Part shown: piece after piece, positions 1,623 to 29,965 of the stretch
Position numbering within the stretch: the stretch's first letter is position 1
How the letters are laid out: every line of letters starts with the position of its first letter
Assembly: GCF_030013205.1 (NCBI RefSeq)
Contig: NZ_CP122648.1
Strand: one strand, 5' to 3'
DNA length: 64,000 bases
Origin: Escherichia coli
GTDB taxonomy: Bacteria; Pseudomonadota; Gammaproteobacteria; Enterobacterales; Enterobacteriaceae
The notes under the pieces: generated by a model
Databases searched by the model: none
What the model was told of the DNA's origin: nothing
The model's input: only the letters and a program-made list of their open reading frames with translations
Made by a program: the position numbers and the translations under genes

Positions 1623-2029
1623 TATGGAAACGAAAAATCACCCTGGAAGCACTGAATGCTATGGGTGAAGGAAACATGGTGGGGTTGCTGGATATTCGCT
1701 TTGAACATATTGGTGATGACACCCTTGAAGCGACAATGCCAGTAGACTCGCGGACAAAGCAGCCTTTCGGGTTGCTGCATGGAGGAGCATCCGTGGTACT
1801 GGCCGAAAGTATCGGTTCCGTTGCCGGTTATTTATGTACCGAAGGTGAGCAAAAAGTGGTTGGTCTGGAAATCAATGCTAACCACGTCCGCTCGGCACGA
1901 GAAGGGCGGGTGCGCGGCGTATGCAAACCGTTGCATCTCGGTTCGCGTCACCAGGTCTGGCAGATTGAAATCTTCGATGAGAAAGGGCGTTTGTGCTGTT
2001 CGTCACGATTAACGACCGCCATTTTGTGA
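1619..2029 (+). CDS. menI: 1,4-dihydroxy-2-naphthoyl-CoA hydrolase (hotdog thioesterase)
   Basis: 136-aa ORF recognised as MenI/YdiI; 4-nt overlap with ydiJ stop. Confidence 0.9.
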   Translation: MIWKRKITLEALNAMGEGNMVGLLDIRFEHIGDDTLEATMPVDSRTKQPFGLLHGGASVVLAESIGSVAGYLCTEGEQKVVGLEINANHVRSAREGRVRGVCKPLHLGSRHQVWQIEIFDEKGRLCCSSRLTTAIL

Positions 2030-2128
2030 CGTTGTCACCAGAAAAGTGTGACGCATATTGCTTTTGGTCATTATCTGCACAGTAAACGGTGGTATACTGT
2101 GCAGGTCTTGTCTAAAAGCGAGGATGCT

Positions 2129-2317
2129 ATGTCTACTCAACTTGATCCCACCCAGCTGGCCATTGAATTTTTACGCCGTGACCAGAGCAATCTTTCACCT
2201 GCCCAATATCTCAAACGTCTGAAACAACTAGAACTTGAATTTGCTGACCTGCTTACTCTCTCTTCTGCTGAATTAAAAGAAGAAATCTACTTTGCCTGGC
2301 GTCTGGGCGTGCATTGA
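2129..2317 (+). CDS. ydiH: small uncharacterised protein YdiH (62 aa)
   Basis: Internal ATG of ORF 2048..2317 gives the 62-aa product MSTQLDPTQL...; position between menI and sufA. Confidence 0.75.
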   Translation: MSTQLDPTQLAIEFLRRDQSNLSPAQYLKRLKQLELEFADLLTLSSAELKEEIYFAWRLGVH

Positions 2318-2499
2318 TTCTGACTTAATGCCGCAATTTCGCCAAATCGACCTGGATTAACCTCCGTCCAGGTTCGATAACCTTCTTAATACTGCTTATC
2401 TACCCGCCTGATATTGTTCAAAAATAATACTAATCGCAGTTTGTGTTAAAACGGCGGGTTAGCTTTATGAGATTATTCTTATCGCCCCTTCAAGAGCTA

Positions 2500-2580
2500 A
2501 GCCACTGAGAGTGCCGGAGATAAGCGCCGGATGGGGTAGAAACCCTTAAGCCTGTGTCGCACAGACTTAAGGGTTTTCTT
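2500..2580 (+). ncRNA. rydB: candidate small RNA (possibly RydB) ending in a hairpin plus T-rich tract
   Basis: Hairpin AACCCTTAAG-loop-CTTAAGGGTT followed by TTCTTATTTCT between ydiH and sufA; RydB is remembered to map in this intergenic region, exact ends not verified. Confidence 0.3.
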
Positions 2581-2670
2581 ATTTCTGAACGCTGCACTTT
2601 TTTACCTATCTCTTAAATAGTCATTTTCAATACAACTTTTTCTTTTTCATCACAGCCTTAATGCTCCTTA

Positions 2671-2686
2671 GATAATAATCATTATC
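2671..2686. promoter_or_regulatory. Fur-box-like motif GATAATAATCATTATC about 195 bp upstream of sufA (could instead fall in the IHF/OxyR region of the suf promoter)
   Basis: Close match to Fur consensus GATAATGATAATCATTATC; near-duplicate of the proximal site. Confidence 0.35.
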
Positions 2687-2806
2687 TAACAATGAGATAC
2701 CTAATTCTTAGCGTGCCTGTTAACCCACACATCAGGGTCTATGCTTATTAAAAGCAGGAAAAAAGCATGTTTTACGGTAAAGCCCCTGCGTTTGCTGGGT
2801 TGAACT

Positions 2807-2819
2807 GATAATCATTATC
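2807..2819. promoter_or_regulatory. Fur box in the sufA promoter
   Basis: GATAATCATTATC about 50 bp upstream of the sufA start; suf operon is known to be Fur-repressed. Confidence 0.6.
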
Positions 2820-2865
2820 ACTAACATGCTGTTATACGCTGAAAGCGATGAAGTGAGGTAAATCG

Positions 2866-3234
2866 ATGGACATGCATTCAGGAACCTTTAATCCACAGGA
2901 TTTCGCCTGGCAGGGCTTAACGCTGACACCCGCAGCCGCTGTCCACATACGCGAGCTGGTGGCAAAGCAGCCGGGTATGGTCGGCGTGCGCTTAGGCGTG
3001 AAGCAAACGGGCTGCGCGGGCTTTGGCTATGTGCTCGACAGTGTTAGCGAGCCGGACAAAGACGATCTGCTGTTTGAACACGACGGCGCGAAGCTGTTTG
3101 TCCCGCTGCAAGCGATGCCGTTTATTGATGGCACGGAAGTCGATTTCGTTCGTGAAGGACTTAATCAGATATTCAAATTTCACAACCCTAAAGCCCAGAA
3201 TGAATGTGGCTGTGGCGAAAGCTTTGGGGTATAG
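2866..3234 (+). CDS. sufA: Fe-S cluster assembly A-type carrier SufA
   Basis: 122-aa ORF, C-terminal CGCGESF motif, first gene of the suf cluster. Confidence 0.95.
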
Positions 3235-12320: not shown

Positions 12321-12560
12321 CCATTCAGGATGAGGCGATAAGCTTCATCCTGATATTCTTGCTTCAGTTGCGGTCCAGTTAATCATTCTAAATAACAACT
12401 GCTGAAATTATACGAATTTCGGTATGTATTTTAATTTATAACGATAATGTTATTTTTATTTTCTGCAATGAACGTCACAAATAATTGTCGTTTAAGTTAA
12501 ATTTATTTCAAATGATAATAAATATCAGTTCACTTATAATTTCTTGCTTTGTGATTTTAA

Positions 12561-20248: not shown

Positions 20249-20554
20249 TCAGGCGAGTTTTGCCTGACTGATTTGACTAAGTGGCTCATTGACATCGAAA
20301 ACTTTGGCGACAACTTCCTCAACGCCGAGATTTTTCAGTCGGGCAGTATGTTTTTCCAGATAGGCAAGGGCGTTTTTTTCATCAGTAAAAAGGTAGATCC
20401 CACCGGCTTCGTGGTTCTTTTCACTTTCTGTCCATACCTTCCACAGAAAACCAGGTTCCTGATTAATCGACTCAGCAAGCGGTTTAAGCTGCTCAGCCAT
20501 TGCGTCGCCAAATGGGCCATTGAAAGAAAAATGAAGTTGTAACAAAGTTGCCAT
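20249..20554 (-). CDS. ydhR: putative monooxygenase YdhR (Dabb-type)
   Basis: 101-aa ORF recognised as YdhR. Confidence 0.85.
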
Positions 20555-20662
20555 AGCGATTCTCCTTCTGATAACGCATACGAAGACAGTGTAAATCTTT
20601 TAACGTATTGGATACAGAGAAGAAACAGAGGGAAAAAAGGAGAAGACCAGATTAAGAAAATC

Positions 20663-20739
20663 TGGTGCGTCCGAGTGGACTCGAACCACCGACCCCCACC
20701 ATGTCAAGGTGGTGCTCTAACCAACTGAGCTACGGACGC
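20663..20739 (-). tRNA. valW: tRNA-Val (anticodon GAC), valW-type
   Basis: Reverse complement reads GCGTCCGTAGCTCAGTTGGTTAGAGCACCACCTTGACATGGTGGGGGTCGGTGGTTCGAGTCCACTCGGACGCACCA with encoded CCA. Confidence 0.95.
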
Positions 20740-20743
20740 AGGA

Positions 20744-20820
20744 TGGTGCGTTCAATTGGACTCGAACCAACGACCCCCACCATGTCAAGGTGGTGCTCTA
20801 ACCAACTGAGCTATGAACGC
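20744..20820 (-). tRNA. valV: tRNA-Val (anticodon GAC), valV-type
   Basis: Reverse complement reads GCGTTCATAGCTCAGTTGGTTAGAGCACCACCTTGACATGGTGGGGGTCGTTGGTTCGAGTCCAATTGAACGCACCA; 4-nt spacer to valW. Confidence 0.95.
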
Positions 20821-29412: not shown

Positions 29413-29456
29413 TCCATTTCACTCCAGACCCTAACTTCAGCTCCTGCAAAATCGCA

Positions 29457-29472
29457 AGGTAAACGTTTGCCT
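29457..29472 (-). promoter_or_regulatory. PUR box (PurR operator) in the purR 5' region
   Basis: Minus strand reads AGGCAAACGTTTACCT, matching the PurR operator consensus ANGCAAACGTTTNCNT; purR is autoregulated. Confidence 0.6.
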
Positions 29473-29710
29473 TTACACACCTTACGCACAACAAAAGTGT
29501 TGCGGTACGCCGGAAAAACGACACGGAGCGTCAGGAAGGGGTCAATGGCCAGTACGCAAATAGTGTAAGCGTGGAATTTTGGCCGATCTTGACGAAAAGG
29601 GGAAGTGGTAAAAACACTTATCATTATAAATGACGGGAGATTTTTTCATCACAGTGTGTAAAAATGCGTAATATCACTTTTTGTGTGGTAATAAAAAAGG
29701 AGAAAACTTG

Positions 29711-29800
29711 ATGAGCACCGACCTTAAATTTTCACTGGTAACAACGATTATCGTCCTCGGTTTGATCGTGGCCGTGGGTTTGACTGCCGCGCTGCACTGA
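29711..29800 (+). CDS. ynhF: small membrane protein YnhF (29 aa)
   Basis: ATG...TGA ORF encoding MSTDLKFSLVTTIIVLGLIVAVGLTAALH with a GGAG RBS upstream; below the ORF-track size cutoff. Confidence 0.7.
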   Translation: MSTDLKFSLVTTIIVLGLIVAVGLTAALH

Positions 29801-29965
29801 TTTCCTCTCGAGGGAGCGCGTTCTCCCTCGCATCTCCTTCCTGTTTGTTAGCAAAATGGCAAAAGTGTTTTCTCTTTTTGTTATTTTCATTTTTTTGTGA
29901 TTGCTGTCATGCTTTCGCCACTTTAATGAATATCGCGTAATGACGCGAAGAGGTGGAGATAAGGC

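Follow-up and report, generated by a model that had tools for sequence, protein, structure and literature searches.

The 548-bp interval 2318-2865 of the window, by which is meant the whole stretch of 64,000 nt of E. coli DNA that was analysed, is the ydiH–rydB–sufA intergenic region of E. coli. Open reading frames and the K-12 annotation give the order of genes on the + strand as ydiJ, menI, ydiH (which ends at 2317), rydB, sufA (with its ATG at 2866) and sufB. The interval was found in 5421 of 5426 complete genomes, is 100% identical to the corresponding DNA of many E. coli chromosomes, and is 99% identical to that of K-12 MG1655. Apart from a difference at position 2679 that is discussed below, the 548 bp depart from K-12 by four substitutions and one single-base indel, none of them inside the motifs; downstream of this sole indel (window 2403), a window position p corresponds to the K-12 coordinate 1764386 + (2866 - p). 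The features of the interval are collected in the table, and were compared with the loci of 80 Enterobacteriaceae species retrieved with SufA.

A preliminary description of this DNA had called the interval the suf promoter region, and had placed in it two Fur-like motifs and a hairpin at the end of a small RNA that it took to be RydB. The first of these identifications is borne out by the K-12 annotation (ydiH, rydB, sufA) and by the conserved blocks; the two motifs and the hairpin were all found at or near the places where it had put them; and the small RNA is indeed RydB, as an Rfam scan matched family RF00118 there with 81.6 bits.

Features of the ydiH–rydB–sufA intergenic region, in window coordinates, with offsets counted from the sufA transcription start
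Feature	Position	Strand	Offset from +1	Sequence and basis
Conserved block upstream of rydB	2436-2451	+		GCAnTTTGTGTTAAA; nearly invariant in 21 RydB-bearing species (alignment A4)
Inferred extended -10 of the rydB promoter	2468-2476	+		TGaGATTAT; T2468, G2469, A2472 and T2476 invariant, positions between them variable
Mature RydB sRNA, 61 nt	2484-2544	+		Rfam RF00118 match; Term-seq 3' end
Hairpin and T-rich tract, read as the rydB intrinsic terminator	2540-2589	+		Arms 2540-2556 and 2560-2576; shares its first 5 bases with the 3' end of mature RydB
OxyR-type element (ORE-I)	2606-2639	+	-228 to -195	CTAT-N7-ATAG-N7-CAAT, 11-bp spacing; alignment A2 and literature
Distal Fur-like motif	2671-2691	+	-163 to -143	GATAATAATCATTATCTAACA; best 7-1-7 match at 2673-2687 (-161 to -147)
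IHF core element (ORE-II)	2687-2699	+	-147 to -135	TAACAATGAGATA; degenerate WATCAANNNNTTR; orthologous cores and literature
IscR type-2 site region (ORE-III)	2779-2799	+	about -55 to -35	AAnGCCCCTGC...GGG; alignment A2 and literature
PsufA core promoter	2800-2834	+		-35 TTGAAC at 2800-2805; -10 TAACAT at 2822-2827; +1 at A2834
Proximal Fur operator	2801-2825	+	-33 to -9	Perfect 7-1-7 dyad TGATAATCATTATCA at 2806-2820; overlapping 19-mers at 2801-2819 and 2807-2825

At the upstream edge of the interval, 29 nt past the stop codon of ydiH, lies a stem-loop (AUCGACCUGGA...UCCAGGUUCGAU, 2346-2378; -16.4 kcal/mol, z = -3.8) that is kept only within Escherichia and may serve as the terminator of ydiH. 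In Salmonella a REP-like GCCGGATAAGGCG takes its place, and the upstream gene of Citrobacter appears to be a different one.

RydB and the hairpin at its 3' end

The match to RF00118 covers the full model (1-61) on the + strand with a score well above the gathering score of 50 (E = 1.6e-19), and the synteny of RydB with ydiH and suf is confirmed by its position between ydiH and sufA. Known in K-12 as b4430 (alias tpe7/IS082), RydB is identical in sequence to its K-12 counterpart over 2472-2590. The 68-nt gene of the K-12 annotation corresponds to window 2472-2539, which is 12 nt off the Rfam/Term-seq boundaries at the 5' end and 5 nt off at the 3' end. In the K-12 Term-seq experiments of Adams et al. 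2021, the sole 3' end within 1764400-1764799 is 1764708(-), which is window position 2544, designated 'primary' for rydB and identical to the last base of the Rfam match. This was the only end recorded for RydB in all three growth conditions, with very high counts: two sheets give 2.17 and 4.14 million reads, compared to 0.18 and 0.08 million for lpp, so that RydB outnumbers lpp by 10-50 times and is on a par with the highest among the entries listed (Adams et al. 2021). The end lies 7 nt past the closing stem of RydB (GCCCC/GGGGU) and 5 nt into the 5' arm of the hairpin. Inspection of 2484-2544 revealed no small open reading frame on either strand. Elsewhere in the window, the Rfam matches above gathering score included STnc550 at 29413-29803 (+), with 396 bits, and the HPnc0260 antisense RNA at 20538-20701 (+) and 20666-20820 (-), of which the latter matches overlap or adjoin two tRNA genes on the opposite strand.

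The position of an extended -10 element (TGnGAnnAT) and the 5' end of the Rfam match together suggest that transcription of rydB begins at about G2484. The conserved block farther upstream, which hardly varies in any of the RydB-bearing genera, may represent either a -35 region or the binding site of a factor. A search upstream of rydB for motifs of other sigma factors or CRP gave no convincing match, only a TGTG half-motif; one preprint proposes CRP as a regulator of rydB. Neither targets nor regulators of RydB are known according to PMC11230228, and in Salmonella it is among the sRNAs most repressed by ppGpp, along with SsrA and SsrS.

The hairpin downstream of RydB consists of a 17-bp stem with one C.A mismatch and a 3-nt loop (2540-2576). 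Its predicted folding energy is -22 kcal/mol (z = -6.3), which none of 200 shuffled sequences equalled, and it is followed directly by TTTTCTTATTTCT, giving a U-rich tail (UUUUCUUAUUUCU) on the + strand only. A simple terminator scanner applied to 2000-3000 returned no match because of the mismatch within the stem; the hairpin was recovered by folding and by a repeat finder. RydB together with a following hairpin is present at 25 of the 80 loci, in Escherichia, Citrobacter, Salmonella, Leclercia, Silvania and Pseudenterobacter. Since the hairpin stands 3' of RydB in all 25 RydB-bearing species, including those in which rydB is located 0.5-2.2 kb from sufA, it is a part of rydB rather than of the suf promoter; in four species a hairpin of unrelated sequence occupies the equivalent place after RydB. 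In an alignment of 26 sequences, 93.4% of the hairpin cells are paired and 12 of the 17 pairs show compensatory changes, a result matched by none of 500 shuffles and far above that of controls in which the pairing partner was slid. In the same 26 sequences the body of RydB (2489-2530) is essentially invariant, and its closing stem has two compensatory pairs. The preserved pairing, the compensatory changes and the controls imply a stem-loop under selection, and with the T tract they constitute strong comparative evidence that the hairpin is the intrinsic terminator of rydB. Two other identities for the hairpin, a REP element and a bidirectional terminator, were rejected: the minus strand has no T tract, and the hairpin invariably accompanies RydB.

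According to the preliminary description, the hairpin and T tract mark the likely 3' end of the small RNA. The terminator-like character of the structure stands, from its presence in 25 of 25 species and the 12 compensatory pairs of 17; the claim about the end does not, for the Term-seq end is at 2544 and none is at the T tract. Mature RydB is not hairpin-terminated, because its abundant 3' end is inside the 5' arm. The published Term-seq data (Adams et al. 2021) contain no 3' ends in the U tract, at K-12 17646xx, which fits with the hairpin being removed rapidly.

A different account of the same structure is that functional RydB is a hairpin-terminated sRNA of about 100 nt, of which the 61-nt form is a stable decay product. 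The conservation and covariation of the terminator would be expected of such an RNA, the Salmonella annotation is 105 nt long with the terminator included, and RepRanger assigns rydB a rho-independent terminator. However, no end other than 2544 was recorded despite the high counts in three growth conditions, the Rfam family, which was built on the described RNA, stops at the same base, and the K-12 annotation stops before the hairpin. The invariance of the locus also spans 2484-2537 and not the hairpin, the sequence of which drifts and has even been replaced. We consider a functional RNA of about 100 nt unlikely.

The preferred reading, in which the hairpin is the terminator of a precursor and mature RydB ends before it, implies a short sequence of events. 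The rydB transcript would start near G2484 and be stopped by the hairpin at 2540-2576 and its T tract, after which the terminator would most likely be lost post-transcriptionally: an endonuclease would cut it off, and 3' exonucleases would trim the RNA until they stall within a few bases of the closing stem. Such exonucleases typically stall a few bases short of a stable stem. The precursors of M1 RNA and 4.5S RNA similarly lose a terminator hairpin, and RydB is like these RNAs in being abundant and compact, in having a closing stem, and in being without the hairpin when mature, a likeness that is drawn from the end positions.

The suf control region and its proximal Fur operator

The proximal copy of the Fur-like motif, GATAATCATTATCACTAACA at 2807-2826, lies within PsufA, the -35 and -10 hexamers of which are separated by a 16-bp spacer and are kept in the Escherichia/Citrobacter alignment A2. 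The transcription start was assigned to A2834 because the Fur site mutation of a published reporter strain, '-26 ATA -24' to TAT (PMC12594620), fits only 2808-2810, which is the sole ATA in the Fur box. Compared to the 19-bp Fur consensus GATAATGATAATCATTATC, the proximal site has three mismatches (16/19) and an overlapping second site has four (15/19); compared to the 7-1-7 dyad TGATAATnATTATCA, it has none (14/14). It is a textbook case among classical Fur boxes, with a perfect dyad over a promoter. The 13-mer core of the site is found with at most two mismatches at -59 to -67 in 76 of 80 Enterobacteriaceae species, and the 7-1-7 dyad with at most two mismatches in 79 of 80. Binding and repression by Fur at sufA are known from the Fur* reporters of the literature (PMC12594620), from the Fur regulon and from the cluster of Chen et al. 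2007, who listed a single Fur cluster for sufA, with three sites within 31 bp, at -53 relative to the start of the gene (window position 2813). The proximal motif is the known Fur operator and, given the inferred +1, has the geometry of occlusion over the spacer and the -10 hexamer. The preliminary description had judged this copy to be placed for repression, in agreement with its cover of -33 to -9, its perfect dyad and its retention in 76-79 of 80 species.

The region that contains the IscR site, the Fur operator and the -10 hexamer is bracketed by an inverted repeat, AAAAGCATGTT (2761-2771) and AACATGCTGTT (2823-2833), of which the upstream arm is Escherichia-specific and the downstream one shares bases with the conserved -10/+1 region. 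Each of the two arms resembles an NsrR half-site (AAnATGCATTT).

The published order of suf regulatory elements is ORE-I for OxyR, ORE-II for IHF, which bends the DNA, and ORE-III for IscR and Fur, which are mutually exclusive (PMC8300815); the architecture is also given in PMC7229158. Within the interval, the OxyR-type block 2606-2639 is kept across Escherichia and Citrobacter in alignment A2, and the IscR block 2779-2799 is conserved in the same alignment. Lee and colleagues are said to have placed ORE-I at -236 to -197, ORE-II at -156 to -127 and ORE-III at -56 to -35 in 2004, and the assignment of the IscR site at the sufA promoter is reportedly due to Yeo in 2006 and Lee in 2008. With +1 at 2834, these ORE coordinates fall on the conserved blocks 2606-2639, 2680-2699 and 2779-2799.

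The IHF core of E. coli is degenerate: TAACAATGAGATA has two mismatches to the consensus WATCAANNNNTTR, and no site with at most one mismatch to that consensus occurs in the E. coli region, so the assignment rests on orthologous perfect sites. In alignment A2, Citrobacter has a perfect IHF core, such as AATCAATGCATTG or TATCAAAGCATTG, as the orthologue of 2687-2699, and 45 of the 80 species have a perfect WATCAANNNNTTR on the same strand at -161 to -181 relative to the ATG, where chance would give about 1 in 65,000 per position.

The distal Fur-like motif

The distal motif has in common with the proximal one an exact 12-mer, ATAATCATTATC, at 2675-2686 and 2808-2819; no other direct repeat of 11 nt or more occurs within the 548-bp region. 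With T at position 2679, as in this DNA, the distal site has five mismatches to the 19-bp consensus (14/19) and two to the 7-1-7 dyad (12/14); with the C of K-12 it has six (13/19) and three (11/14), respectively. The statement of the preliminary description that both copies resemble the Fur consensus holds, at 16/19 and 14/14 for the proximal copy and, with the T allele, 14/19 and 12/14 for the distal one. Sites with at most five mismatches to the 19-bp consensus number seven in the 64-kb window, and at least one occurs in 3% of shuffles of the region; sites with at most two mismatches to the 7-1-7 dyad number three in 64 kb, and at least one occurs in 0.6% of region shuffles. By these measures of sequence, the likeness of the distal motif to a Fur box exceeds what random base composition would give, yet it hinges on the single polymorphic base 2679. 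The same survey found TGATAATAAATATCA at 12513-12527, a 7-1-7 Fur dyad with one mismatch in the AT-rich intergenic region of fumD(ydhZ) and ydhY, which falls on the Fur cluster that Chen et al. 2007 predicted as 'ydhY -255'.

Position 2679 is T in this DNA, C in K-12 MG1655 and G in the GTDB E. coli representative. Searches with allele-specific 55-mers found T in 2143 and C in 3271 complete E. coli genomes, which is about 40% with T and about 60%, K-12 included, with C. Because E. albertii and E. whittamii have T, this base is probably the ancestral one in Escherichia; the distal motif of E. albertii differs further, beyond the variation at 2679. The motif is restricted to Escherichia, and the zone -230 to -150 contains a 7-1-7 match with at most two mismatches in only 2 of the 80 species. 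Within the motif, the Fur-like left half GATAATAA is the portion that is not conserved, and the conserved portion consists of ATTAT, an invariant flank, followed by the orthologue of TAACAATGAGATA. From its sequence and conservation, the distal motif is best read as the ORE-II IHF element (an A/T-rich 5' flank and the start of the core), with a Fur-box likeness that would be a matter of chance and of lineage. Judged as a classical Fur box, it has one imperfect dyad, a neighbouring dyad with three mismatches, a location distant from the promoter, and no conservation. An ancient duplication of a Fur box was also considered and rejected: the copies share just 12 + 5 bases, their flanks are unrelated, and other genera have the IHF core at the distal place. 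The two copies are not a duplication, since the TAACA that they share lies in the -10 hexamer (TAACAT) at the proximal site and opens the IHF core at the distal one.

The likeness could nevertheless have a function, if the distal motif is a true auxiliary operator for Fur, at least where T is present at 2679, from which Fur would rival IHF and dampen activation by OxyR in high iron, or cooperate with Fur at the proximal site. The match of 12/14 to the 7-1-7 dyad (P of about 0.006) and of 14/19 to the consensus falls in the range seen for some functional Fur boxes, and the site is one of only three (7-1-7) or seven (19-mer) in 64 kb, the remaining strong ones of which are Fur sites, real or predicted. 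The exact 12-mer held in common with a bona fide operator and the probable ancestry of T in Escherichia are further points in favour of such an operator. The two mismatches in the E. coli IHF core count against the preferred reading as an IHF element. However, a repressor 150 bp upstream of +1 cannot occlude polymerase there; unlike the proximal site and the IHF core, the motif is absent from other genera; 60% of E. coli, including K-12, have the weakening C, and some have G; Chen et al. 2007 give one sufA cluster only; and the left half GATAATAA is unconserved while the conserved portion is accounted for by IHF. We regard an auxiliary operator as improbable, and with it a second Fur box at the distal copy, for which the preliminary description had left the choice between Fur and the IHF/OxyR architecture undecided; this copy lies about 150 bp upstream, is found in Escherichia only, varies among T, C and G, and coincides with an IHF element.

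Another reading is that the distal motif overlaps a second suf promoter, upstream of the first and repressed by Fur. The only candidate that the motif overlaps is a promoter-like match at chance level, and not PsufA: ATCACA-16-GATAAT at 2649-2676, from which transcription would start at about 2683. The scan matched it at 9 of 12 positions, with the GATAAT of the distal motif serving as its -10 hexamer, but there are three such sites in 1 kb where 1.3 +/- 1.2 are expected by chance, the hexamers are not kept outside Escherichia, and the literature uses a single PsufA (PMC12594620, PMC7229158, PMC8300815). A second suf promoter at this location is highly improbable.

Organization of the interval

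The features of the interval, among them the proximal Fur operator, RydB and the terminator-like hairpin, are already known, and nothing in it is new in kind. With a probability of roughly 0.8, the interval consists of two adjacent known units on the + strand, namely rydB and the published suf control region, with the distal motif as the flank of the IHF site. The suf unit has the same locus, block order, spacing and Fur operator as the PsufA region described in the literature (Lee 2004, Outten 2004, Yeo 2006, Lee 2008); the published K-12 region has C at 2679, whereas the T of this DNA makes the flank of the IHF site more like a Fur box.

On this arrangement, the order of control elements upstream of sufA would be OxyR (about -228 to -195), IHF (-147 to -135), IscR (about -55 to -35) and Fur, the last over the spacer and the -10 hexamer. 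The bend introduced by IHF would let oxidised OxyR, about 200 bp upstream, contact the polymerase, and Fe2+-Fur on the perfect proximal dyad would exclude both RNA polymerase and apo-IscR. The distal 'Fur box' would be made up of the A/T-rich flank and the first bases of the IHF site, a likeness that is strongest with T at 2679. The lasting role of the rydB terminator would be to end a very abundant transcript that runs in the same direction as the tightly repressed suf promoter, about 250 bp ahead of it; without it, the RydB transcript of Escherichia and of some Citrobacter would enter the suf promoter controlled by OxyR, IHF and Fur.

For work on rydB, the location of the terminator outside the mature RNA, 250 bp upstream of PsufA, is a matter to be considered in cloning or deleting the gene. 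The K-12 rydB coordinates (68 nt) are at odds with the 61-nt boundaries given by Rfam and Term-seq, and the annotation could be tidied accordingly. The remaining interest of the interval lies in this disagreement between annotation and mapped ends, and in the common T/C polymorphism in the flank of the IHF site, which alters its likeness to a Fur box and is therefore relevant before genomes other than K-12 are scanned with Fur matrices. A more novel reading, which we hold to be improbable, has two separate parts: the IHF element of the T allele (about 40% of E. coli) may double as a weak second Fur site, and RydB, whose 3' end is among the most abundant of the cell, may be matured in the manner of a stable RNA by losing its terminator. 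If the T allele does provide a Fur site, iron status would tune the IHF/OxyR-dependent induction of suf in an allele-specific manner.
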